DNA of 64,000 bases from Candidatus Sericytochromatia bacterium (GTDB lineage Bacteria; Cyanobacteriota; Sericytochromatia; UBA7694; JACMQJ01): contig JAXLXH010000001.1 in the NCBI GenBank assembly GCA_046328015.1, positions 907,305 to 971,304 on the forward strand. The letters run 5' to 3'. Position numbers and translations under genes: made by a program. Below, piece by piece: positions 2,604 through 64,000 of the stretch. The notes beneath the pieces are model-generated. The model was given only the letters and a program-made list of their open reading frames with translations, was not told the origin of the DNA and did no database searches. Positions within the stretch are counted from its first letter, which is position 1. Each line of letters starts with the position of its first letter.

Positions 2604-4031
2604 TTATCCTTTATAAGCTTTATAACCTTTTTCATATAAAGTTTTAACTAATATTTCTCTAGCTTTCAAGTTTATTTCTAAATCTAAAAGTGCATCAATT
2701 TTATCTTTTAAAGAATCTTTTGCTAAAATATCATCAACACTTAGTCCAAGATAATCTGCTACTATTTTTTCTTCTTGATTTATAAGTTTTATCCAAAGCT
2801 CTTCCAAAGCTACAGTTTCTGTATTATCAATCATTTGTCTAGTATTAGTATTCATTAATTGAGTTAATCTTTCTTTAGTATCATCTAAAGCATTTAATTC
2901 TTTTACTATAGATAATATTTCTGAAGAATTAAGTAAGAAGCCAGCTTTTAATTTTTCAAGTTCTTGAACTCTAACAGATAATTCTTGAACTTTACCTTGT
3001 AATTGAGTTTCAAGTTTTTTATATCTAGTTAGTTGAGAAGTAGCTTGTTCTAAATTATTTTTTAAATCTTCATTTTGTGTAGTTAATTCTTTATTATCTG
3101 TTTGTAAGTCTTCTATTCTATTTTGAACTCTATTTAAAGATTTACTAGCATCTTTACTTTGTTTACTTTGACTGATTAAATCAGAACCTATACTATTAAT
3201 TCTATCTTGGAATTTTTTATTTTCTTTTTCGATATTTTCTAATTTTTCTACATAAACTTTTCTTTCTTCTGCAAATCTTTTATCAGAATCAGCTTGTATT
3301 TTAACTAATTGAGCTTTTTCTTCGTCATACTTTGTTTTTAAAGTTTCCATTCTTTGCTCATATTTAGTTTTTAATTTTTCTTTTTCTATATCATAGTTTT
3401 GTCTTAAACTATTAGTTTCTTCTTTTTGTTTATTTTCAGAATCAGAAAGTTTTTTTTCTAATTCTTTTATTTTATCTTCAAGCTCTTTTACTTTACCAGT
3501 ATCAATTTCTCCTGATTCTATTTGTTTTTTTAATTTTTCTTCTTTATAAGAAGAAATTAAAGAAAAAACATTTTCATTAACATCTGGTTGAACTAGGTAG
3601 CAATAAGTTTCTACGTCATCTATATCAACTTCTTTAGTGATAACTTCTATATCATCAGTAGATAATGATGAAGATTTTAATTTCTCGATATCTATTTTTA
3701 AAGCTTTTTTATTTTCTAACCAATCTACACCTAATTGTTTTAAACTTTTTGGTATTTTTGATACTTGTTTTACAAGAAAATCATCAATATCTTCTTTTTT
3801 TGCATTTTTATTAGTTAATCCTTTAGTTAAAGCTAACATTTTCAAAGAAGGATTATCATTTATATACTTTGTTTTATGTATATTAGTTGGATAAAGATCT
3901 CTAAATATTTTTTTTAAAGTTTCTTCAGGAATCTCTTTTAGAGTTTTCTCTTCAGAAACTGTGTCATTTTTTTTATCTTCTTCTTTCATATTAATACCCT
4001 TATTTTTTGATTCAATAGTTATTTGCGTCAT
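2604..4031 (-). CDS. Hypothetical coiled-coil protein, 475 aa, extremely Lys/Glu-rich central heptad region
   Basis: Long ORF. Coiled-coil periodicity (EKLKTKYEQRMETLKTKYDEEKAQL...). 13-nt gap to the upstream 1109-aa gene. Confidence 0.6.
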   Translation of the reverse strand: MTQITIESKNKGINMKEEDKKNDTVSEEKTLKEIPEETLKKIFRDLYPTNIHKTKYINDNPSLKMLALTKGLTNKNAKKEDIDDFLVKQVSKIPKSLKQLGVDWLENKKALKIDIEKLKSSSLSTDDIEVITKEVDIDDVETYCYLVQPDVNENVFSLISSYKEEKLKKQIESGEIDTGKVKELEDKIKELEKKLSDSENKQKEETNSLRQNYDIEKEKLKTKYEQRMETLKTKYDEEKAQLVKIQADSDKRFAEERKVYVEKLENIEKENKKFQDRINSIGSDLISQSKQSKDASKSLNRVQNRIEDLQTDNKELTTQNEDLKNNLEQATSQLTRYKKLETQLQGKVQELSVRVQELEKLKAGFLLNSSEILSIVKELNALDDTKERLTQLMNTNTRQMIDNTETVALEELWIKLINQEEKIVADYLGLSVDDILAKDSLKDKIDALLDLEINLKAREILVKTLYEKGYKAYKG

Positions 4032-4044
4032 TTTATTCCTTATT

Positions 4045-7000
4045 CTAATTTAATTCTTCTAAAACGAATTTCTCTACTAATACACCTACCTTTTTTAATT
4101 CTCTTTCAAAAACAATGGCATCTTTATTCTCTTTAAAAAACTGTATGTATTCTAAAGCTTTTTCATCATCAATAGAATTTTTTAACGATTTTTCAAAATC
4201 ACTTAAAGCTTCGTTATAAATATTCATATCTGAATATAAAATACCTCTTTCAAAAAATGAATATGGGTTTTTATCATCAGTAGATATAATTTTATTCAAA
4301 TTATCTATTTCTTTGGCAAAAGGAAGCCCTTTAAAGTGCATTTCTTCGAAGTTTTCATTTGTACTTTCAAATAAGCCTTTTACTACAATATCTTCTATAT
4401 TATCTAAGTTATTATTATCTAAGAAAATAGAGAAACGTCTATTTTCCCACTTTTTACCATCACAAATAATAGAAAAAGAATTTCTATCTATCCTAATAAA
4501 TTTAGGTGCAAAATCATCTTCACAAAAGACTTTTTTAACATCAATAGAATTATTATTACTATCTGATACTATAAATTTTAAAGAAGAGTTTGCTAATCCT
4601 TCATAAGTTATAGAGAAATTTAAAGAATTATCTGATAAATTTATAAATGGATCATTTTTAACTTCTTGAACCTTAGAGTTCCAAATTACTGAAAATTCTA
4701 ATTCATGCTTTCCAGATTGAATAGAAACCGCATTATCATTTTTAGTTAGATATTGTTTAATAGATTTAAGTGGTTCTATTATAATTCCAGCATTATTAGC
4801 TATTAGTGGTTTTACTACACTATGATTTACTTTTAATCTAGCATCTTTAAATGGTGATTTTATTATTATAGAAGTTTTATCTAAATTATAATAATCAATA
4901 CTATTAGAAGCATATAACCTACCATCTTGATTAAATTTCATTGCTAGTACTTCAGGTTCATATTTTATATTTATTTCTGTAAAAGGCATAAATAATTTAG
5001 CTTTTTTATAATGAGTAGTTTTTTTAGCATCAATAAACTTGTTAGCATTAATTGAAAAATCGCAAGCAGCTAAATTATCAAATTTATAGTGTTGTGTATT
5101 TTTATTATTTCTAAAACAAGGTATTTGAGATTTTAAAGTTAAGATAACTTCTTCATCTTCTTTATATGAATTAGAGTATTCTTCACCTTGTAAATTTGGA
5201 ATAATAAATATAGAATATCTACCTAAATAAGAACCTTTTATATAAAATTCAAAATCATACCTACCATGAGTTAAATTAACTTCTGGCATTAATTTTTGAA
5301 TAAAGTTTTTATCTATAACATTACTATTAACATCTCTTTCTAATAACTCATTTACAAAACCCATAGAAATATTATTAGAAGTTTGAGAAGAATTAACTAA
5401 AGCTCTTATAGATATATCTTTAAATTCTATTTGAGAAATATCAGAACTAAGTGTAATGTGAGAATCATCTATATCAAGCAATTGATTAATTTCATATTCT
5501 ACATAGTTATTTCTATACGCTTGAAATTTTTGTGAAACTTTAAAGTTTATACATTCAGAAAAATTCCAACGATAATCTGAATCTATACTTAAATTAAGTG
5601 GCTTTGCAGTATTTAACCAAGCTATTTCATAAACATGAAATCTACCAAAATTTTTACATTCATAAACTTCGCAAGAATCATTTAACCATTTATAGTCAAA
5701 TCTTTTGGTTGTAAATAAAAATAATCTTTCTGGACCATATTTTATACTATAAGGAGATGGTTTTAATATCATCCCTGAATTACCATCAAAAAGAATATTA
5801 TCTTCTAATTCATAGTTTATTCTTGCTTCGAATTCTGATAAATGAATAGGTTCTTTATCAGCTATTAATAAAATATCTATTTTACCAGGTCTTTTATCTT
5901 TTATTGGATATACTATTTCACCTGTATAACAAACATCATCAATAGGGAAATCTTTAAGCATAGATATTTGATCAGTATTAATTAATTCTAATCTTTTACC
6001 TTTATTTTCTTGAGAAATTAAAATAAAATTTTCTAAATGAAGTTCAAAAATAGGAGCTGACTCTTCATTTTTTATTTTTAGGGCTAAAGAAGATATGATA
6101 TTTTCTTTAGGCAATAAAGATTCTATTTCAGCAAAATCGCTTTCTACAGATATTGTTTCATATAATGGTCTATTATCATACCAAATAAAACTTTCTACGC
6201 CTTCTAATGATAATTTTACAGCTTTTCTATGAGAATCATTATTACCAACTATTGGGATAAAAGTATTTTTTGATTTTATAAATAATTTATTACCACAAAG
6301 GCTTATTTTTTCATCTTCTAAAGAAGTTAAATCAGTTTCTTCAAAACATTGAGGAAAAAAATTATAGGCTTTTCCAGATATAGTATGTAAACCTAAATAA
6401 TGTTCTTCATCAAAGTATTGACCAGCTGTGGTTTTATTGCCATTTGGTAATATAATTTCTTCTTTACTATCAAGATTTTCTAAGATAGATAAAAATTTAT
6501 ATTCAGGAATAGAAGAAATATTTTTTACAAAATCATTTTTTATTTCTTGATGTTCAAAAATATAACTTAGTTCTTCTGAATAATGTTTATTAAATTTTTC
6601 ACAAAAATTTTGTAAATTATCTTCTGATAATGGCTCATTATCTCTATTAATAAAATCTACAAATGATACTAAAGTAGCAATAACAAGTTCTGCTTTACCT
6701 TGAAACTCTGATAATCTTTTATAAGTATTTTCTACTTCTTGTCTTACCAAACTTTCTTTACCCAAAAATTCTAATTGAGATTTATACCCTGTAATAGAAA
6801 AGTTTATTTCTTTAAAAAATTCTTTTAATTGAATACTAGGATAAAAGTATTTATAGTAAAATTTAAATAAATAAATTACATCTTCTAAACAAGATAAGGA
6901 TAACTCAGATTCTCTGGCAATATAATCAGTATAATTTATTTTACCTTTTATATTAGGAGGAATAATATTTTCTTCTATTAAAGCAGGTTCTAATATTTTT

Positions 7001-7374
7001 TTATAAAAATTTTCATTTACAGATAAATCATTATCATTGGCATAAAACTGCCAAAAATTATCTTCAGCTTTATTATCGTATTTTTTGAATGATTCTGTAA
7101 TACCTGCTAAAACAATTACACGAGCTTTTTTTAAGATTTTTTCTGTGTCATTGGTAGATAAATTATTTATATGTTCTTCCGCTATAAATAATCTATGCAA
7201 AGAAATAGTAATTTCTATTATTTCTTCCTTTAATGATGATACATCAATACTACCAAGTCTTACTCTTTGATCTGCATGGTAAGTACGTTCATTTTTTATT
7301 TTTTTTCTGTTTTGTTCGATTATATTGAAATATTTTTCAACTTCTTCGACAAACTCTCTAGGGCTTAGAGCCAT
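4045..7374 (-). CDS. Hypothetical large protein, 1109 aa, no recognisable catalytic motif, TPR-like helical C-terminus
   Basis: Uninterrupted 3.3-kb ORF. Soluble composition. Confidence 0.6.
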   Translation of the reverse strand: MALSPREFVEEVEKYFNIIEQNRKKIKNERTYHADQRVRLGSIDVSSLKEEIIEITISLHRLFIAEEHINNLSTNDTEKILKKARVIVLAGITESFKKYDNKAEDNFWQFYANDNDLSVNENFYKKILEPALIEENIIPPNIKGKINYTDYIARESELSLSCLEDVIYLFKFYYKYFYPSIQLKEFFKEINFSITGYKSQLEFLGKESLVRQEVENTYKRLSEFQGKAELVIATLVSFVDFINRDNEPLSEDNLQNFCEKFNKHYSEELSYIFEHQEIKNDFVKNISSIPEYKFLSILENLDSKEEIILPNGNKTTAGQYFDEEHYLGLHTISGKAYNFFPQCFEETDLTSLEDEKISLCGNKLFIKSKNTFIPIVGNNDSHRKAVKLSLEGVESFIWYDNRPLYETISVESDFAEIESLLPKENIISSLALKIKNEESAPIFELHLENFILISQENKGKRLELINTDQISMLKDFPIDDVCYTGEIVYPIKDKRPGKIDILLIADKEPIHLSEFEARINYELEDNILFDGNSGMILKPSPYSIKYGPERLFLFTTKRFDYKWLNDSCEVYECKNFGRFHVYEIAWLNTAKPLNLSIDSDYRWNFSECINFKVSQKFQAYRNNYVEYEINQLLDIDDSHITLSSDISQIEFKDISIRALVNSSQTSNNISMGFVNELLERDVNSNVIDKNFIQKLMPEVNLTHGRYDFEFYIKGSYLGRYSIFIIPNLQGEEYSNSYKEDEEVILTLKSQIPCFRNNKNTQHYKFDNLAACDFSINANKFIDAKKTTHYKKAKLFMPFTEINIKYEPEVLAMKFNQDGRLYASNSIDYYNLDKTSIIIKSPFKDARLKVNHSVVKPLIANNAGIIIEPLKSIKQYLTKNDNAVSIQSGKHELEFSVIWNSKVQEVKNDPFINLSDNSLNFSITYEGLANSSLKFIVSDSNNNSIDVKKVFCEDDFAPKFIRIDRNSFSIICDGKKWENRRFSIFLDNNNLDNIEDIVVKGLFESTNENFEEMHFKGLPFAKEIDNLNKIISTDDKNPYSFFERGILYSDMNIYNEALSDFEKSLKNSIDDEKALEYIQFFKENKDAIVFERELKKVGVLVEKFVLEELN

Positions 7375-17368: not shown

Positions 17369-18424
17369 ATGAAAAAATACAAATTTAAAAAAATAAATTT
17401 TATTTACCCGTTAATAGCTGTATTAATTGGGTGTAGTAATATTGCAGATAATTCTGAAATTTCTTCTAAATCTTCTATTCAAAGTAATGAAGATACTTTA
17501 TCTCCAAATACAATAAAAGTATGGGAAGAACATCTTAGCCAAGTTAAATATTCAGGAGAAATACAAAAAGGTTGCGAACCTATTTTAAAAAAAGCTGAAG
17601 GTAAAGCTTTGGGTAGTGTAGTTTTATTTCATGGTTATAGTGCTTGTCCACAACAATTTAATAAAATAGCTGATATTTTAGCTAAAAAAAATTATAATGT
17701 TTTTGTACCTCTTTTACCTGGTCATGGTAAAACACAAGTAAAAGTATCTGGTAAATTAATAGATGATTCTTCTGGATTACCAGAAACTAGTTCTGTATAT
17801 CTTTATGATAATTTTGCTCATAGTATAGGAGCTTTATTAAAAGACGAACAAGGTTCAAAAGTTGTTTCTGGTCTATCTGTTGGTGGAGTTGTTGCTACCA
17901 AAGTTATGTTAGATTATCCAGAAGTTTATGATAGAGGAATTCTTTTTGCTCCATTTTTTAATGCTTCAGGAGTTTTAAGTGCTTTAATTCCTGCTGTTAA
18001 TACAATAGTACCTAATAAAAGAATGAGCTGGGGAAATGAATGTGAATTCAAAAGAACTTTGGGTAGAGCAGGATATTGTGATTTTAAAATTGAAAATATT
18101 GCAGCCGCAAGAAAATTTGGAACAGAAACACTAAAACATGTTTCTTTAATAAAAAAGCCTATTCAAATTGTTGGGGTAGAAAGTGATCCTGCTGCTTCAA
18201 ATTCAGCCATTGCAGATGCAGTTAAAAATATGCCAAATTCTAAAGGATGTTTTTTAGAAAAAGGTACTCCACATTCTATGTTATCAAAAGAAGATAACCC
18301 TACTAATCCTATGTTTTGGTTAAAACCAGTAGAAGACCAATTAGTTGATTTTGTTAGTACTGGTAAAAACTTTGTTGAAGTAGGTAAATCTCAACATAAC
18401 TTAGGTTTGTGCAAATCTAGTTAA
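17369..18424 (+). CDS. Alpha/beta-hydrolase fold lipoprotein (esterase/lipase-like), paralog 1
   Basis: Lipobox LIGC. HGYSACPQQF...PLLPGHGK. Nucleophile-elbow-like GLSVGG. Confidence 0.7.
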   Translation: MKKYKFKKINFIYPLIAVLIGCSNIADNSEISSKSSIQSNEDTLSPNTIKVWEEHLSQVKYSGEIQKGCEPILKKAEGKALGSVVLFHGYSACPQQFNKIADILAKKNYNVFVPLLPGHGKTQVKVSGKLIDDSSGLPETSSVYLYDNFAHSIGALLKDEQGSKVVSGLSVGGVVATKVMLDYPEVYDRGILFAPFFNASGVLSALIPAVNTIVPNKRMSWGNECEFKRTLGRAGYCDFKIENIAAARKFGTETLKHVSLIKKPIQIVGVESDPAASNSAIADAVKNMPNSKGCFLEKGTPHSMLSKEDNPTNPMFWLKPVEDQLVDFVSTGKNFVEVGKSQHNLGLCKSS

Positions 18425-18426
18425 TA

Positions 18427-19458
18427 ATGAAATTTATAATTAGTTCTTTTTTAATATCATTACTAAGTTATAACTCTATAAGTAATAATAATTTTTCTGA
18501 AGAACTAAATAATCCATATACCAAAGAAAATTTAACTCCTAATACTTTAAAAATATGGGAAGAACATCTTAAACAAGTAGAAAAATTAGGAGAATTACAA
18601 AGCGAATGTGAACCTTTTTATAAATTAGCAGAAGGAAAAACTCTTGGGAATGTTTTGTTTTTTCATGGTTATACTGCTTGTCCACAGCAATTTAAGGACA
18701 TTTCAGAAATTTTAGCTAAAAAAGGCTATAATGTTTTTGTTCCTCTTTTACCTGGTCATGGTAAAGTTTCTAATTTGGTAAATAATGAAATAATAGATGA
18801 TGATTCTTTGCTTCCAGAAGTAAAAGATATAGCTATTTATGATAATTTTGCTAAAAATATGGGAGCTTTATTAAAAGATGAAAATGGTGAAAAAATTATA
18901 GGTGGCTTATCAGTTGGAGGAGTTATAGCTGCTAAAGCTCTAATTTATAATCAATCTTATTATGATAGAGCTGTATTAATGACTCCTTTTTTTAGTGCAG
19001 CTGGAGATATAAGTCCTTTTATTCCTTTTATAGGTGCAATTATTCCTAATACTAGAATGAGTTGGGGAGAAGATTGTGAAGAACAAAGAAGGTTAGGAAG
19101 AAGTGGCTATTGTAATTTTAAAATAGGTAAAGTCGCAGCTGTAAGAAAATTTGGAACAGAAACTTTAAAACAAGTAAATAAAATTACAAAACCTGTTCAG
19201 ATATTAGGTGTAGAAGATGATCCTGCTGCATCTAACTCTGCTATAGCTGAAGCTATAAAAAATATTCCTAATGCAAAAGGTTGTTTATTTAAAAAAGGGA
19301 CTCCACATTCTATGTTATCCAGAAAAGACAACCCACATTCTAACTTATTTTGGCTAAATGCTTTGGAAGAACAATTAGTTGATTTTATAGACTACGGAAA
19401 AAATTTTGATGAAATTGGTAGCTCTCAAAATAATTTACCTGCTTGTAGATATGAGTAA
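18427..19458 (+). CDS. Alpha/beta-hydrolase fold protein, tandem paralog 2
   Basis: About half the residues are identical to the upstream gene over the full length, with the same HGYTACPQQF, GLSVGG and Cys positions. Only 3 nt separate the two genes. Confidence 0.7.
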   Translation: MKFIISSFLISLLSYNSISNNNFSEELNNPYTKENLTPNTLKIWEEHLKQVEKLGELQSECEPFYKLAEGKTLGNVLFFHGYTACPQQFKDISEILAKKGYNVFVPLLPGHGKVSNLVNNEIIDDDSLLPEVKDIAIYDNFAKNMGALLKDENGEKIIGGLSVGGVIAAKALIYNQSYYDRAVLMTPFFSAAGDISPFIPFIGAIIPNTRMSWGEDCEEQRRLGRSGYCNFKIGKVAAVRKFGTETLKQVNKITKPVQILGVEDDPAASNSAIAEAIKNIPNAKGCLFKKGTPHSMLSRKDNPHSNLFWLNALEEQLVDFIDYGKNFDEIGSSQNNLPACRYE

Positions 19459-19564
19459 TTAAAAAAATTAGATTATTTCCAATTTAAACTATCAAAAAAT
19501 ATTTACATTATTTTTGCTAAAGTGGTATAATAAGATTAAAATTTGGTTAAAGAGGGAATAAATT

Positions 19565-20041
19565 TTGAGTAACAAAGATAATAATTTTGGCGACCAATAT
19601 GTAAAGATGCCTTCAGGTAAGCCATTACCTAAAATAACAAAACTCACTGTTTCAGAAAAACAAGAAGCACCAAAAGAAGAAAAAAAAGTAGTAGAACCAC
19701 CTAAAATAGAAGTAAAAAAACCAGAAGCTCAACCTCAGTTACCAAAAGTCCCTAAATTTATAAAAAAAGATGCTGAATTAGAAAAAGAAATAGTAAAAAT
19801 AATTCAAGAAGTTCCTAAAGCTGAATTAGATAGAATTTTAAAACCAACTCAAGTTGATAAAGAAAGACTTTCTAAAATGGATTTCCAAAGTAGAAGTGAT
19901 ATGTCTGATGAAGAGAAAAAAGATTTTATCGAACAAATACAAAAAAGAGAACCAGAACCTGAGGTAGCACAAATGAATGGAGCCTTGGTTTGGAAATGGC
20001 AACAAAACAGAAAAACAGGCGACAATAAGGGTAAAAAATAA
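19565..20041 (+). CDS. Hypothetical Lys/Glu/Pro-rich protein, cassette 1 gene A, TTG start
   Basis: RBS AGAGGGA 7 nt before TTG. C-terminal ...LVWKWQQNRK is paralogous to the C-terminus of the gene at 35867..36457. Confidence 0.5.
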   Translation: MSNKDNNFGDQYVKMPSGKPLPKITKLTVSEKQEAPKEEKKVVEPPKIEVKKPEAQPQLPKVPKFIKKDAELEKEIVKIIQEVPKAELDRILKPTQVDKERLSKMDFQSRSDMSDEEKKDFIEQIQKREPEPEVAQMNGALVWKWQQNRKTGDNKGKK

Positions 20042-20056
20042 TCGGGTAAAATAATC

Positions 20057-20680
20057 ATGCAAAAAGCTGTCCTTACTAAATTAATAACAAAAGCTGTTCA
20101 GGGTACATTTGATCCTCAAATTTGTAAAAGATATATAAGAGAATTCAATTTTGGAGCAACTCCTAATGCAGATGACATATATGCTTTAGCTTTAAAGTTC
20201 CTTAATCAAAATGAGACTGAGATTGCAATCAGCTATATTATAGCTTCTTTAGATGCAAATAAAGATCATAACCCTACATTCCACTTGGCTAAAACTATGG
20301 TTTTTAGTCTTTCTGAAGAATTCGAAAGAAACCAAGGTGCTATTTATAAACAGAAACAAAGCGATTTAAAAAAATATGTTTTGATGTTAGAAAAAGGAAT
20401 ACAAAAATCTGAAGCTGATATTTTAGCCTTAAAAAATGAAGCAAAAAAATTAGAAGCTGAAAGTGGTGGTTTCTTTTCTAAATTAATGAATAAAAATAAA
20501 GATAGAATTGCAGAAATAAATACTCAAATTCCAGCTGAAAGCGATAAAATGGAAAAAAGTAAATCTGAAATGAAAAAAGTAATTTATTTAGTACAAATAG
20601 AAGAATATATGAAAGTTTTATCTTTAGTAATGGAAGTACTTACTTTCCCAAGTAGATATAGTTGGGTTTTTAAACAATAA
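20057..20680 (+). CDS. Hypothetical helical/coiled-coil protein, cassette 1 gene B
   Basis: AISYIIASLDANKDHNPTFHL... is paralogous to AISFIISALDIDRKHAPTLHL in the gene at 36460..37086. Confidence 0.55.
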   Translation: MQKAVLTKLITKAVQGTFDPQICKRYIREFNFGATPNADDIYALALKFLNQNETEIAISYIIASLDANKDHNPTFHLAKTMVFSLSEEFERNQGAIYKQKQSDLKKYVLMLEKGIQKSEADILALKNEAKKLEAESGGFFSKLMNKNKDRIAEINTQIPAESDKMEKSKSEMKKVIYLVQIEEYMKVLSLVMEVLTFPSRYSWVFKQ

Positions 20681-21495: not shown

Positions 21496-22233
21496 ATGTC
21501 TTATATTGATGACGATAATTTATGGAAAGAAAATTTATATGAAACTTTGGGTGTAGCTGAGGATGTATCTGAATCTGATTTAAAAAAAACTTATCTTAAA
21601 TTAGCAAAAAAATATCATCCCGATAGATTTCCTGAAGAAAATGAAGAAAAAATAGAAGCTCAAAGATTATTTTCTAAAATTACGGTTGCTTATAATGTTT
21701 TAAGTGATCCACAAAAGAAAAAACATTACTTAGAATTAAGACGGTTATTAGCTGGGCACATCCCTCAAGAAAATAAATTGGCACAAGAAATACAACAACA
21801 ACCATCTACAACCACTATACCATCTACAGATACAGAACAAAAATCACCTGAAGTTAAACCTCAAGCTCAACATGATCCTAGTCAAACAGTTGAAAAAATA
21901 AAAGAAGATCAAGCCCGAAAATTTTTTGATATTGGAATGGATTTTATCAAAAAAAATAAACTCGATGACGCTATAGAACAATTTAAAAAAGCTATTACAA
22001 CTAAAGCAGACGTAGGTGATTTTCATACACAATTAGGTAATGCTTATAGAAAGAAAAATTGGAGTGGTATGGCTATAAATGAATTTAAATTAGCTCTAAA
22101 ATATAATCCTAAAGATTTTTCAGCTAAAAAAGCATTAGAAGAAATGGGTGGGAATACAACTAAACCAGCAGAGAAAGAAGAAAAAAAAGGTGGTTTTTTA
22201 AGTGGTTTATTTGGTTTTGGAAAGAAAAAGTAA
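21496..22233 (+). CDS. DnaJ (J-domain) protein with C-terminal TPR-like repeats
   Basis: J-domain with HPD motif (LAKKYHPDRF). TPR-like C-terminus. Confidence 0.8.
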   Translation: MSYIDDDNLWKENLYETLGVAEDVSESDLKKTYLKLAKKYHPDRFPEENEEKIEAQRLFSKITVAYNVLSDPQKKKHYLELRRLLAGHIPQENKLAQEIQQQPSTTTIPSTDTEQKSPEVKPQAQHDPSQTVEKIKEDQARKFFDIGMDFIKKNKLDDAIEQFKKAITTKADVGDFHTQLGNAYRKKNWSGMAINEFKLALKYNPKDFSAKKALEEMGGNTTKPAEKEEKKGGFLSGLFGFGKKK

Positions 22234-32836: not shown

Positions 32837-34045
32837 TCATTTAGTAAAATAACTTATTTTATTAATACTAGCTATTATATCTTCATAATCTAACCCAAAA
32901 TCAATTAAACATGCTATTTCTGTAACTCCTATCTTAGCCAATTTAGCTATTTTATCTTCCAAAATTTCTTTATCTCCAAAAAAAGTTCTATTTTCAAAAT
33001 ATCTTTCAAAAGCAAACTCTAATAACTCTTCTTTATCATTTTTAGTCAAATTTTCAGGATTTATTGTTAAATCTGAAGCATTTCCAAATTTACCTAATAA
33101 ATCTAATGTACTTTTTAAATACTTTTTAAAGGGTTCTTTTACTTTATTTTTTACTTGTTCTTTAGATTCTCCAAAATAACTATGCATAAAAACAGCTATT
33201 TTTTTATTTTTTCTATGACCGTTTTTTTCTAAAGCTTGAAAATAAAGTTCTAATTTTTTCTCTAATTCTTCTATATCTTGATCTAATAAACAAGTCATCA
33301 AATTATAACCTTTTTCTCCTACTTTTATATAAGTTTCTGGATTCCCTATAGCAGTTACCCAAATTTCTAAATTTTTATTATAGGGTTTAGGATGAATTTC
33401 TATTTCTATTTCTTTATTAGCCCCATTTATTCTTTTTAATTTTTCTCCTTCCCATAGCTTTTTTACTTCTTCTATTCTATCAAACATAATTTCTTTTCTA
33501 TTTTGATAATTTTCTGGTTCAAAAACAAAATCATTTATATGCCAACCCGTAGCAAAAGATAACTCTACTCTACCTTTAGATAAGTTATCTATAATAGACC
33601 AATTTTCAGCGGTTCTTATTACGTCATTTATAGGTAAAACAACACTACCAGCTCTTAAACTAATATTTTTAGTAATACTACTTAAAGCAGCAGAAATAAT
33701 CGCAGGATTTGAATAAATACCGCCTAATTTATGAAAATGTCTTTCTGGAGTCCAAATAGCTGAAAAGTTATTTTCATCTGCAATTTTTGCTACTTCTAAT
33801 AATAATTTATATTTATCATTTTCATCATCTACATTATCAGAAAAAAGAAAAATACTAAAATCCATTTTTATATTATTTTTTTTAGCTAAAAAATTAATTA
33901 TTGTTTTTTTATTTTCGACTAAAAAATTTTTTATTTCTGGAGTTATAAAACCTTTGGGAGCTTGTATTTTTAGTTCTTTATCTACTAAAGAGATTATTAT
34001 ATCTTTTTCTTTTAAGTCATCTAGTATTTTTTCTATTTTTGACAT
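32837..34045 (-). CDS. Luciferase-like (flavin-dependent) monooxygenase with N-terminal TubC-N-type docking domain
   Basis: Residues ~60-402 match the LLM TIM barrel. The first ~55 aa (DIIISLVDKELKIQAPKGFITPEIKNFLVENKKTIINFL) match the TubC_N docking-domain pattern (..L...G..L...AP.G.LTPEL...L..HK..IL..L). Confidence 0.75.
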   Translation of the reverse strand: MSKIEKILDDLKEKDIIISLVDKELKIQAPKGFITPEIKNFLVENKKTIINFLAKKNNIKMDFSIFLFSDNVDDENDKYKLLLEVAKIADENNFSAIWTPERHFHKLGGIYSNPAIISAALSSITKNISLRAGSVVLPINDVIRTAENWSIIDNLSKGRVELSFATGWHINDFVFEPENYQNRKEIMFDRIEEVKKLWEGEKLKRINGANKEIEIEIHPKPYNKNLEIWVTAIGNPETYIKVGEKGYNLMTCLLDQDIEELEKKLELYFQALEKNGHRKNKKIAVFMHSYFGESKEQVKNKVKEPFKKYLKSTLDLLGKFGNASDLTINPENLTKNDKEELLEFAFERYFENRTFFGDKEILEDKIAKLAKIGVTEIACLIDFGLDYEDIIASINKISYFTK

Positions 34046-35643: not shown

Positions 35644-35729
35644 AATAATAATAAACTAAGTCCTTTTTTGATACAATAGTATTTATATTTTATAGTATAG
35701 GACATTTTTAGTAGATGAGGTAGTATTTT

Positions 35730-35864
35730 ATGAGCTATGTTGATATAAAAAACGATCAAATAACAATAAAACCAGAAAGTATTTCTAACCTTGAGCTAAA
35801 ACTAGATAAAGAAATAACAGGAAAAGATTTAGTTAATTATGTAAAATCGCTTGAGAAAAAATAA
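35730..35864 (+). CDS. Possible small protein, 44 aa, directly abutting cassette 2 gene A
   Basis: ATG preceded by GAGGT. Stop 2 nt before the 35867 ATG. No homology evidence. Confidence 0.25.
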   Translation: MSYVDIKNDQITIKPESISNLELKLDKEITGKDLVNYVKSLEKK

Positions 35865-35866
35865 GC

Positions 35867-36457
35867 ATGGCTGAGAAAAAAAGTAATAACGATAAATTTT
35901 TTAAAGAAGATTCTAAAAAAGGTAAATCTAATTCTCAAGTTGATTTTATTAAAGGGGAGCTTTTTGATGCAGAATTAGAAGAAAGAATTAATTCTGTAAG
36001 TATAGATGAAGATGAAATAGATTCTTTTGAAATAGCGGATTTAGAATTTGATGAAATAGATGAACTTGAAATTAATGATGAAATAGACTTTGAACCACAA
36101 AATGATACTAGTTATCTAGCTACTGATAAAAAAAAGCCTACTATAGAAGTTATTAATAGAAAAGTTTTAACTAATAAAAGTGATGAAAAAAAAGCCAGTA
36201 AAATGGTTTCTAAAGAAGCCACTAAACTAGTTAAAGATTTTATAAAACAAGATTTACCTATAAATGAAGTAAGAAATATTTTAGAGTTATCTCATGGAGA
36301 TAAAGAACTTCTTATGAATACACCATTTGGTTCAAACTCTTCAAATTCTCAAGAAAAAAAAGAACTTATAAATAAATTAAATGATATAACATCTAGTGAT
36401 GAAGTAAATATAGCAAATGCTAGTTTTGTTTTGAAATGGCTGAAGAATCGTAGTTAA
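35867..36457 (+). CDS. Hypothetical acidic protein, cassette 2 gene A
   Basis: Paralogous to 19565..20041 (…NILELSHGDKELLMNTPFGSNSSNSQEKKELI… versus …RILKPTQVDKERLSKMDFQSRSDMSDEEKKDFI…; C-terminal xLKWLKNR versus xVWKWQQNR). Confidence 0.5.
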   Translation: MAEKKSNNDKFFKEDSKKGKSNSQVDFIKGELFDAELEERINSVSIDEDEIDSFEIADLEFDEIDELEINDEIDFEPQNDTSYLATDKKKPTIEVINRKVLTNKSDEKKASKMVSKEATKLVKDFIKQDLPINEVRNILELSHGDKELLMNTPFGSNSSNSQEKKELINKLNDITSSDEVNIANASFVLKWLKNRS

Positions 36458-36459
36458 CA

Positions 36460-37086
36460 ATGGAAAAAGATAAAAATAAACCTCAGCCAATAAACAATAT
36501 ACTTGAAAGAGTAATTGATGCTGAGCTTTATGAAAAATACAGAAGAAATTTAGGGTTTTCAATAACCCCTGATTATCTTTATCAATGGGCATTAATAAGT
36601 TTAAACGAAGATAATTCTGATAAAGCAATAAGCTTTATTATTTCTGCTTTAGATATAGATAGAAAACATGCTCCTACTTTACACCTATTAAAAAGTTTAA
36701 TTATAGGTATTAGTAAAGATTTTTATGAAAATGGTGGTTCTAGATATAAACAATCGCATGAAAGTTTTGATGAACTAGTATCTTCGATAAAAAAAAAGGC
36801 ATTAGTAGTTAAAAAAAAGAATGAGCAAATAAAATTAGAAATAAGTTCTTTAGAAAGTTCTATAAACTCCTCTTTTGCTCCTTTTAAAATATTAAAAAAA
36901 TTCCAAAAAGAAAAAGATTTAATAGCCTTAAAAAATAAGATTATAGAGAATCAAGATAAGATAGATTTTTATAAAAGAGAAATTAAAAAAATTAGACGCT
37001 TTCAAAAAAATGAAGAGTATTCTAAAATTTTGGGTACAATACTTGAAATTTGTGTAATGCCTAAAAAATATGCTGTAACCAATTAA
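36460..37086 (+). CDS. Hypothetical helical/coiled-coil protein, cassette 2 gene B
   Basis: Paralogous to 20057..20680. Starts 3 nt after gene A. Confidence 0.55.
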   Translation: MEKDKNKPQPINNILERVIDAELYEKYRRNLGFSITPDYLYQWALISLNEDNSDKAISFIISALDIDRKHAPTLHLLKSLIIGISKDFYENGGSRYKQSHESFDELVSSIKKKALVVKKKNEQIKLEISSLESSINSSFAPFKILKKFQKEKDLIALKNKIIENQDKIDFYKREIKKIRRFQKNEEYSKILGTILEICVMPKKYAVTN

Positions 37087-61557: not shown

Positions 61558-64000
61558 TGTCGAAAACAATTCACGAAAAGACTGGAGTCTCGCAGACTCG
61601 GGTCAAAAATTATTTTATGTATTTGAGCATATTCTGCACGATGTTGCTCTCTACATTACTTTTTTCGCCTAAAGCAGAGGCGATAACCCCAGCTGGTACA
61701 ACAATAGGTAACATTGCAACTGCTACTTATGAAGATAGTACCGGAAATCCATATACAACCAACTCTTTACAAGTTAATACAGTTGTTCAACCTGTATATG
61801 GTTTTGATGTTGATAAAGATGGTACTAAAGTAACTCCAAATGCTTTAGTAACTCAACAAGCTACCCCTGGTAGTATTATTTACTATCAATATAAAATTAC
61901 CAATAACGGTAACGTTAATGATAATTTTACAATTGATAACACAGGTGTTTTAAATAAATTTTTAGGAACACCAGGTTTTACACCTTTAATTGATCCTCCA
62001 ACAGTTTATTGGGATAAAAATGGTACTGGTAATTTCCAAACAGGGGATCCAATACTTACTACTTCAACCCAATTACCAATTGCAGCTGGAGCTTTTGAAT
62101 ACGTAATAGTAGAAGTTAAAGTTCCTGCTGGAGCTGCTGCTGGTTCTTCTTATGAAAACAACATCGTTGTTAGATCTGTTGGAGATTCTACAGCAAGAGA
62201 TAATAATGAAGATTTGGTTGTAGATGGCGGTGGTCAATATGCAAAAGGTCAATGGAATAAAACAACCGTTGTTAATGATGCAGTTATTGACGTAGATAAA
62301 GCAACTAATGTTTCTCAACAAGATCCATCTGGTTTAATTACCTATACTTTAACCGTAAAAAACAACGGTAATAAAGATTCTCAAGGTGTTACAATCAGAG
62401 ACCCATTACCAAATTTTGTTGCATACGATATGGCTTCGGCTTCTTTACCAGCTAACTGGTCTATAGATTATTGTACTGCTACAACAGGAGATGGTCTTGG
62501 AAATGCAAATACAAATGCGTCTTATGGTGCATATACACCTGTGGCTACTCCGGCAACAACAACTGTTGATACAAATATCAAAGGGGTAAGATTTAGAACA
62601 ACTACAGCTATTATACCAGGTGCTAGTGTTTCTATTACCTTCAGAGTAAAAGTAAAACCTTATGGTTTAGCAGGTCAAACAGGTTCTCAATTAGCTCCAG
62701 TTACTACTGTAGTTAATACAGGTAAATTTGACTATGAACTTTTTGTTGCAGGAACACCTGTTACAGATAAACCGACTAATGATGCTCCTACAGATATCAA
62801 CAAAAAGCTTGCTGTTGCTGTAGAGCCTAATGCAGCTCAATTTGCTGCTCCTAATAACCATACTTCTTTAGGTGGAACAAGTGCTACAGCTTCTAATGTA
62901 ACCCCTGGAGATGGTCTTGCAACTGTTGCTGGTAGTGTTGCTGCAAACAGCTATGTTTATTTTAGACAAACCGTTACAAATAATGGTAACTCTACAGATA
63001 CATTTAACTTAACCGCTCATACAAGTCCAGCCCTTTTACCAGATGGTACTACAGCACCTGCATTACCTACTGGTTGGTCAGTATCTTTCTTCCAAGAAAC
63101 AGATACTACAAATGCTGCTAACAATACTTCTCCTGTAGTTGGAAACAACACTGGAAATATTGCACCAGGCGGTACTTTCAACTATATTGCAAGAGTATTT
63201 GTTCCTGCTAATGCAGCTACAACAACTCAAAATATTTATGTAAAATCTACCTCTACTTCTGCAACTGGTACAGCTTTAGGTACAACCTTTACTTTATTAG
63301 CAAATGATTATTCTTTATTAAGAATCACTGATGTAACTCCACCAGGTGGTAAAATCGAGAATATCGTTGGTGCTGCTACTGCTGCTGGAGCTTTAAGAGT
63401 AAGTAGAGCTGGAAACCCTGATGTTTCATTAACAGAATCTGCTAATGGTACAACAGTATCATTCCCATTAAGAGTTACTAATACAGGTTTAGTAAATGAT
63501 ACATTTACACTTGGAATTGGTGCTACAAATACTTTACCTTCTGGATGGACAGCTGAATATTATGATTTAGTTGCATCAGATAAAGTAACTGCTGTTACTG
63601 CTACAACTGTAACATTAAATAATGCGACAAACTTTGCTGTTGGCGATACCATTATTATTAATGGTCAATCTTTAACAGTTGGCTCTAAAGCTGGTAATGT
63701 AATTACTTTTGCTACTGGTCAAACAGTTTCAAATTTAACAGCTTATGCTGCTACAATTACCGCTACTAATTTCCCTACAGCTGTAAAACCAGGAAATATT
63801 TCTATAGTATCTACTGGTAATTTAGCTGCAAATGGTACTAAAGATGTAATAGCTGTTATTACAGTTCCTGCTGGAACAGCTCCTATTAATAAAAATCTTG
63901 ATTACAAAATTACATCTGCAAATGCTCCTACAAGTACAAGTGCATTATTAACAGTAACAGATGCTGTAGTTGTTCCAAACTTCAGAAGCTTTACTTTAAC
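61558..64000 (+). CDS. Partial CDS, 3' end outside the window: very large surface/secreted protein made of tandem DUF11 (conserved repeat domain) modules
   Basis: Frame open from 61558 to the window end. Repeated …ATPGSIIYYQYKITNNGN…, …DPSGLITYTLTVKNNGN…, …SYVYFRQTVTNNGN… modules. The signal peptide is better placed if the start is the ATG at 61618 (MYLSIFCTMLLSTLLFSPKAEA). Confidence 0.7.

Follow-up and report, generated by a model that had tools for sequence, protein, structure and literature searches.

A recurrent two-gene cassette encoding two orphan protein families in Sericytochromatia

Among the non-photosynthetic relatives of cyanobacteria, Sericytochromatia stand closest, and all that is known of them comes from metagenomes; to our knowledge, their cell biology is almost wholly uncharted. 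In a 64,000-nt stretch of a Candidatus Sericytochromatia metagenome-assembled genome (MAG; contig JAXLXH010000001.1), which we refer to as the window, two small genes of no obvious function lie side by side at two places, as A1-B1 (cassette 1) and A2-B2 (cassette 2). What kind of unit do these pairs form? The original prediction, made from the letters of the window alone, described them as paralogous, tightly spaced and obligately paired, and proposed a two-component unit such as a partner switch, a chaperone with its effector or a toxin with its immunity protein. We found that A-B is a conserved, uncharacterised two-gene unit whose order is kept amid flanking genes that change from each examined MAG to the next. 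Our tentative interpretation is that B is a docking protein for a largely disordered partner.

The four open reading frames (ORFs) of the original prediction are present in the window, together with the peptides quoted from them (Table 1). BLASTP aligned A1 with A2 at 36% identity across the C-terminal 90 residues (E = 5e-10), and B1 with B2 at 31% identity across 198 residues (E = 3e-26). Because these proteins are rich in Lys and Glu, we also used a control that is independent of pairwise alignment, in which hidden Markov models (HMMs) were built from the orthologues of A1 or B1 only and shuffled sequences were scored alongside the real ones. A2 reached 33.6 bits with the A1 model, compared to a maximum of 11.2 bits for 1000 shuffles of A2, and B2 reached 102.6 bits with the B1 model, compared to a maximum of 8.4 bits for 1000 shuffles. 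Selection on each of the four genes is purifying: ratios of nonsynonymous to synonymous substitution rates (dN/dS) are 0.09-0.39 in comparisons with orthologues from other assemblies (A1, 0.09-0.23; B1, 0.13-0.16; A2, 0.27-0.39; B2, 0.09-0.11). Together, the BLASTP alignments, the HMM control and the purifying selection confirm the paralogy and the conserved A-then-B order. For A, the paralogy extends over the C-terminal ~90 residues and not over the N-terminal halves, which cannot be aligned and have unrelated compositions (Lys/Pro/Glu-rich in A1, strongly acidic in A2). A and B are not kin to one another (hhalign probability 0.2%).

The two genes are indeed tightly spaced. Gaps of 15 nt and 2 nt separate A1 from B1 and A2 from B2, respectively, and in a cassette from another MAG (L022) the A and B genes overlap; this spacing suggests coupled translation. 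A1 and B1 share a reading frame in the window only, with TAA and five codons between them. The TTG start codon of A1 is kept in four other loci (L001 5514, L002 5436, L003 5422 and L004 5470), B1 and A2 use ATG, and the TTG start could keep the level of A below that of B. A promoter-like site ~34 nt before the start of A1 is positioned in a manner that fits an autonomous A1-B1 transcription unit, as judged by consensus matching; such sites are no more numerous in this region than in shuffled sequence.

Table 1. Features of the two cassettes in the window, and genes that flank cassette 1 and its counterparts in other MAGs. The promoter-like sites are consensus matches only.
Feature	Position	Strand	Description
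A1	19565..20041	+	158 aa, TTG start
B1	20057..20680	+	207 aa, all-helical (predicted)
B1 hairpin tip	20465..20497	+	residues 137-147, GGFFSKLMNKN; exposed aromatics, then Lys cluster
Promoter-like site, cassette 1	19502..19531	+	TTTACA, 18 nt, TG-TATAAT; 11/12 matches, extended -10
A2	35867..36457	+	196 aa, ATG start
B2	36460..37086	+	208 aa, full-length paralog of B1
S (possible gene)	35730..35864	+	44 aa, ends 2 nt before A2
Promoter-like site, cassette 2	35668..35696	+	TTGATA, 17 nt, TATAGT; ~34 nt before S
Flanks, window cassette 1			alpha/beta-hydrolases, thioesterase
Flanks, L001			YfbK/VWA
Flanks, L002			DUF4388, glyoxalase, WD40
Flanks, L003			SerA, B'
Flanks, L004			FtsH, B', Obg

Of 1.84 billion cluster representatives, a profile of B matched 52, and 37 of these matches reached E <= 1e-10. 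The matched proteins are full-length B proteins (about 200-240 aa) or shorter fragments, with the exception of three weak partial matches to tetratricopeptide repeat (TPR)/repeat or chimeric proteins of 519-3260 aa. The corresponding A profile retrieved 35 proteins among 5.8 billion. Every A or B match that carries an organism name is assigned to Sericytochromatia or to "Cyanobacteriota", and no relatives of either protein were found on IMG/VR viral contigs. Orthologues are 65-87% identical across MAGs. A1 lies immediately upstream of B1 in 5/5 orthologous loci of other MAGs, each with its own set of flanking genes, and the A2-B2 pair recurs in loci L012-L021 (A2 orthologues P0110-P0117; B2 orthologues include P0058).

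Further copies of the cassette exist in other genomes. By inspecting the genes upstream of distant B proteins, we located two more divergent A-B cassette types in other MAGs (L022 and L025). A 167-aa A-like gene overlaps the start of P0067 (A-HMM E = 1e-10), and a 219-aa A-like gene precedes P0076 (A-HMM E = 1.5e-3, with pairwise BLAST matches to other A types down to E = 8e-12). The four types (A1B1, A2B2, L022 and L025) have diverged to 25-35% identity, and the similarities among the A proteins agree with those among the B proteins, grouping types 1 with 2 and 3 with 4. Bit scores are 42.4 and 43.1 within these groups and 18.5-40.4 between them for A; the corresponding values for B are 87.8 and 105 within groups and 68.6-80.5 between. 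Agreement of this kind is expected if the cassette was duplicated as a unit, and to judge from these comparisons the A-B pair appears to have been.

The pairing is not obligate, however. B genes that have no A partner also exist, and the B family has expanded into many paralogs, among them solo members and tandem B-B' arrangements. A neighbour-joining tree of B contains at least five deep subfamilies, several of which can occur in a single MAG: KatS3mg068 carries B1, a tandem B' and a solo B3, binchicken_co248_139 carries B1, B' and P0076, and LF-bin-423 carries B1 and P0065. In the A-B-B' rows, a second B gene (B', about 200 aa) directly follows B1 (L004 6615..7217 and L003 6717..7319); the window genome has a hotdog thioesterase gene at the place where L003 and L004 have B'. 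Solo B genes occur after tpiA in a nusB-ftsY-ksgA-tpiA-B-thioredoxin row, before a HEAT-repeat gene, next to ETF genes, and between an HMA-domain gene and an exo/endonuclease-phosphatase gene. Another solo copy, in the higher-GC locus L007 (1406..4224), overlaps the stop codon of mlaF in an mlaE-mlaF-B-DUF3084 row, and a published study connects DUF3084/COG4372 with gene clusters of the outer membrane (PMC5007114). The L007 protein is extended at its C-terminus, where it ends in VWYG, and similar aromatic tails occur in several of its relatives. The idea that this tail mimics the VWKW C-terminus of A, with binding in cis instead of in trans, is speculative, since the tail occurs in a single subgroup of higher GC and is lacking from other solo B proteins.

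What do the two proteins look like? The AlphaFold2 (AF2) model of B1 is all-helical, with a mean predicted local distance difference test score (pLDDT) of 90.6 and a predicted template modelling score of 0.81. A head of short helices (residues ~9-100) is followed by an antiparallel hairpin of two long helices (residues 104-136 and 148-196). Residues ~38-75 of B read as one TPR helix-turn-helix (xxTExAIxYIIxxLDxD). Residues 50-75 align to designed consensus TPR proteins in the PDB, with a whole-sequence E value of 9e-5 to which each single stretch contributes weakly, and the same TPR-like stretch aligns to one repeat of the 3260-aa TPR protein; no Pfam TPR model reaches E <= 1 on B. TPR proteins consist of tandem 34-residue helix-turn-helix repeats, usually three or more. 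B resembles the TPR adaptors and co-chaperones of the Pfam TPR clan in this stretch and differs from them in having a single motif, joined to a coiled-coil hairpin and an FPxRYxW motif that have no counterpart in the TPR family. The latter motif belongs to the best-conserved part of B, which comprises the end of the second long helix and the residues that follow (IEEYxKVLxLxxEVxxFPxRYxW; in B1, IEEYxKVLSLxxEVxTFPSRYSW). In its make-up, B combines widespread elements, namely a TPR-like motif together with a coiled coil.

The A protein is predicted to be largely disordered. Residues 1-58 of A1, a Lys/Pro/Glu-rich stretch, have pLDDT values below 50, and they precede a C-terminal domain (residues ~66-152; pLDDT 65-82) that has five short helices at residues 70-152 and ends in NGALVWKWQQNRK. 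A2 begins with the N-terminal motif SQVDFIKGELFD, continues into an acidic disordered stretch and ends in a helical domain homologous to that of A1, with NASFVLKWLKNRS at its C-terminus. Three features are conserved in the A alignments: the C-terminal domain, a terminal N-[GA]-[AS]-x-V-x-x-W and a short N-terminal D-x-[YF]-[IV]-K. The stretch that joins the N-terminal motif to the C-terminal domain is free to vary. The N-terminal halves of A1 and A2 differ in charge: A1 has a net charge of +6 and A2 a net charge of -14, with -15 within residues 1-105. This acidic arm of A2 is complementary in charge to the hairpin of B2, which is strongly basic (net +9).

Neither protein could be assigned to a known family. 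We searched Pfam and NCBIfam with A1, B1, A2, B2, the small ORF S that precedes A2, two divergent A types and six divergent B paralogs, and found nothing near the curated cut-offs; the best matches, at E >= 0.005, were generic coiled-coil families. Scans against PADLOC and PHROGs gave no match above noise for the cassette proteins or for divergent paralogs. No curated family or known chaperone family in these four collections and, as originally predicted, no catalytic motif accounts for A or B. A Foldseek search with the B1 model against the PDB gave a best E value of 0.14 (AhlC), and the top matches, AhlC, MakA, PaxB and SmhB, were all non-significant, with TM scores of 0.27-0.40 and root-mean-square deviations of 15-19 A. 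The best E value against BFVD was 0.18, and the A1 model gave no Foldseek match. A sequence-profile search of the PDB returned only coiled-coil and low-complexity matches in addition to the single TPR motif; we discarded 8qox as a homologue because its alignment runs over a Ser/Leu-rich repeat. Some B orthologues bear the JGI name "RNase H-like nuclease (RuvC/YqgF)". We rejected this assignment as well, since no RuvC/YqgF Pfam model matches and the B1 model, which is all-helical and strandless at high confidence, is incompatible with such a nuclease; the name probably stems from coiled-coil similarity. A search of the literature on Sericytochromatia found nothing on either gene. With no curated model, solved relative or significant fold match, A and B are new families.

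The loop at the tip of the B hairpin, which has low confidence in the B1 model, deserves separate treatment. In most of 32 aligned B family members, which are 22-35% identical, an aromatic or hydrophobic stretch of 6-15 residues followed by Lys or Arg occupies this position. This stretch keeps its position amid surrounding sequence that is not conserved; the sequence of the tip is itself poorly conserved and its chemical character is kept, as in the examples GGFFSKLMNKNK, SFAPFKILKKFQK, KGLWRIFQLIFFKK, GFFGRLFGGGNR and FFSFKRLFILYIFKKR. For 14 of the 32 proteins, the tip is the most favourable interfacial 11-mer of the entire sequence on the Wimley-White scale. The tips GGFFSKLMNKNK, GFFGRLFGGGNR and KGLWRIFQLIFFKK resemble the MinD/FtsA-type targeting sequence KGFLKRLFGG in composition and calculated amphipathicity, although the B tip is an internal hairpin loop and the MinD/FtsA sequence is C-terminal. 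A HeliQuest-type discriminant was 1.4-1.6 for the tips, compared to 1.5 for E. coli MinD, and was equally high for other Lys-rich segments. Because this score does not discriminate in Lys-rich proteins, we treat the tip as a putative membrane contact only.

How might these parts work together? We favour, at a probability of roughly 35%, a stoichiometric A-B complex in which B would be the docking subunit, possibly at the membrane, and A a variable, disordered arm. According to this model, the two proteins would form a module that is confined to Sericytochromatia and has a small operon of its own, with A and B made together in fixed proportion to form the complex. B would be a cytoplasmic, all-helical structural protein with a compact head, a single TPR-like motif and an antiparallel coiled-coil hairpin of ~45 residues. 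Its conserved head and C-terminal motif would bind the C-terminal domain or the short N-terminal motif of A, and the hairpin tip would hold the complex at the membrane or at another interface. The part presented would then be the disordered arm of A, which is basic and rich in proline in cassette 1 and acidic in cassette 2, and the paralogous cassettes would be specificity variants of one scaffold. The physical interaction of A with B, the membrane association and the adaptor role are what we infer here; the homology, gene order, selection, duplication of the pair, predicted folds and lack of a known family are what the analysis shows.

In favour of the model we count the A-B pair as the only conserved unit of these loci, the close gene spacing, the agreement of A with B across cassette types, the predicted structures, the conserved tip with its MinD-like chemistry, the single Mla setting, and purifying selection in a core-chromosome context with neither phage nor defence signals. 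Several observations weigh against this model. B paralogs occur without an A neighbour, and B therefore does not need A. The confidence of the A1 model is moderate only (mean pLDDT 60). The B1 tip is itself short (GGFFSKLMNK), and the HeliQuest-type discriminant is driven by Lys content and fails to separate the tip from other Lys-rich segments. Neither a transmembrane segment nor a lipobox nor a known membrane-binding domain is present, and the Mla context of the L007 gene was seen once and does not recur.

It is possible, though somewhat unlikely, that B is instead a dedicated chaperone that keeps a disordered client A, either an effector or a structural cargo, soluble or export-competent. 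FlgN-FlgK/L, FliS-FliC, CesAB-EspA and the SycD-type chaperones likewise pair a small helical protein with a largely disordered partner encoded next to it, with one chaperone type per client type. The disorder of A, the small helical B with its TPR-like motif and coiled coil, the tight coupling of the genes and the existence of a distinct B type for each A type would all be in keeping with such a role, as would genes for J-domain-TPR proteins at most three genes from a cassette in two different genomes. Yet no Pfam or NCBIfam chaperone model matches even at E <= 1, be it for FlgN, FliS, FliT, CesAB or the class II TPR chaperones, B has no sequence or profile similarity to these chaperones, and a YscO-like match to one paralog (E = 0.034) is coiled-coil noise. 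Secretion or flagellar genes occur in none of about a dozen neighbourhoods, many B genes are solo copies with no client gene beside them, and the conserved aromatic-basic tip is left unexplained. We also regard as unlikely a cytoskeletal, cell-pole or division scaffold, in which a self-assembling coiled-coil B, similar to DivIVA, GpsB or the coiled-coil-rich proteins of cyanobacteria, would recruit A. B does share a length of about 200 aa, a coiled-coil hairpin and a putative amphipathic membrane contact with DivIVA, GpsB and PspA/Vipp1/ESCRT-III, many paralogs occur per genome, murC lies four genes from cassette 1, and PATAN/DUF4388 genes lie beside cassettes in L002 and L021. However, similarity to DivIVA, GpsB, PspA/Vipp1 and Snf7 does not exceed noise: B1 and B2 have no match, and the best one, Snf7 to one distant paralog only, scores 14 bits where the cut-off is 27.3 (E = 0.039). 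B is also arranged differently, with its hairpin at the C-terminus and a TPR-like head at the N-terminus. Links to division genes are sporadic, and the sequences offer no sign of self-assembly.

Mere adjacency, with A and B as functionally unrelated lineage-specific genes held in order by operon inertia, would explain why B occurs without A; we consider it improbable, because the A-B order survives across four deeply diverged types and complete turnover of the flanks, with coupled or overlapping stop and start codons. We judge very unlikely a miniature membrane-inserting protein related to the ClyA family of alpha-pore-forming toxins (AhlC, MakA, Hbl/Nhe, PaxB/XaxB, SmhB). These toxins head the Foldseek list, MakA and Hbl-L1 are listed over profile positions 103-198 in the PDB profile search, and the long antiparallel hairpin with a hydrophobic tip or head and the multi-gene cassettes are shared features. 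The scores are nevertheless at noise level (Foldseek E >= 0.14, deviations above 15 A, hmmsearch E about 0.04), every family member exceeds B in length by 60-200 residues (B has 207 aa, the matched chains 215-369 aa), and B has no five-helix tail bundle. Furthermore, A is disordered, unlike any toxin component, and the genes have a housekeeping setting, with solo copies beside tpiA and no virulence or secretion context. We find a toxin-antitoxin or toxin-immunity pair highly improbable, despite the small two-gene operon, the tight spacing and the multiple paralogous copies. Neither a DNA-binding antitoxin domain nor a nuclease, kinase or other toxin fold is present, and 65-87% identity across MAGs together with the dN/dS values is what core genes passed on vertically show, not mobile genes of patchy distribution. 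Housekeeping operons such as nusB-ftsY-ksgA-tpiA-B contain solo B copies. The toxin-immunity suggestion of the original prediction thus finds no support, there being no PADLOC or PHROG match and no viral relatives, and inheritance looks vertical in core-chromosome settings; nor does its partner-switch suggestion, with STAS, kinase and phosphatase domains all absent.

A bolder extension of the docking model would make B the basis of a cellular system specific to Sericytochromatia, in which membrane-anchored helical B "pegs" of at least 10 paralog types each present a different disordered A arm at the cytoplasmic face of the membrane. Neither photosynthetic cyanobacteria nor other bacteria would have anything equivalent to this modular scaffold, and the fold arrangement of B would be new. 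We think it quite unlikely that all of this holds.

A possible third gene, S, precedes A2. An S-like ORF of 44-47 aa ends 0-2 nt before A2 in the window and in L012-L014, L016, L019 and L020, with relatives detected by phmmer at E = 8e-10 to 5e-8. These ORFs share the C-terminal motif E[IL][TK]GK[DN]LVxY[IV]KS[IL]EKK, and the form ELTGKDLVxYIKSIEKK is kept in three diverged genomes. The dN/dS values (0.37-0.96) are ambiguous, S is absent from L021, and cassette 1 has no counterpart of it. On these comparisons, S may be the third gene of cassette 2.

The window itself is a core-chromosome setting of ~26% GC, with priA, murC, molybdenum-cofactor genes, selD and genes for complex I subunits; murC lies downstream of cassette 1. 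B1 matches a hypothetical protein of a Candidatus Sericytochromatia MAG at 100% identity, and in that genome the locus tag of A2 is 16 beyond that of B1. Directly upstream of cassette 1 are genes for tandem paralogous alpha/beta-hydrolases (Hydrolase_4; 17369..18424 and 18427..19458, + strand), which constitute a further local duplication in this genome; both proteins have hydrophobic, signal-peptide-like N-termini. Three genes downstream of B1, the gene at 21496..22233 (+ strand) encodes a J-domain and TPR protein with the C-terminus KKGGFLSGLFGFGKKK, which resembles the MinD membrane-targeting sequence and the B hairpin tips. A protein 33% identical to it, with the C-terminus KKPGFWETLFRRK, is encoded in another MAG (L025 972..1700), three genes upstream of a different A-B cassette. 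J-domain-TPR genes were found near cassettes in these two genomes only, and the PATAN/DUF4388 genes are similarly confined to L002 and L021. As candidates for recurrent functional neighbours, the Mla, J-domain-TPR and PATAN/DUF4388 genes are too sporadic to build on.

Elsewhere in the window, a gene at 32837..34045 (- strand) encodes a luciferase-like monooxygenase with an N-terminal TubC-type docking domain. Such docking domains are a feature of nonribosomal peptide synthetase and polyketide synthase assembly lines, and no synthetase gene adjoins this one. Pfam returned nothing at E <= 1e-5 for two adjoining large ORFs on the - strand, 4045..7374 (1109 aa) and 2604..4031 (475 aa). The GC fraction rises to 0.37 in the last part of the window (62001..64000), compared to about 0.26 elsewhere, and no tRNA or Rfam features were found in the window, this part included.

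These results define two orphan families with clear boundaries: B, which is helical and has expanded into many paralogs, and its disordered partner A, which is linked to B through at least four ancient duplications. The cassettes demonstrate no new mechanism, and their practical value is modest pending a demonstrated interaction or localisation. Should the scaffold model prove false, the analysis would still correct a misleading RNase H-like nuclease label and remove the toxin-antitoxin reading. If B is indeed a membrane-docking scaffold for disordered partners, then the cassettes would represent a lineage-specific organising system, and B would be a useful marker family for the class Sericytochromatia.

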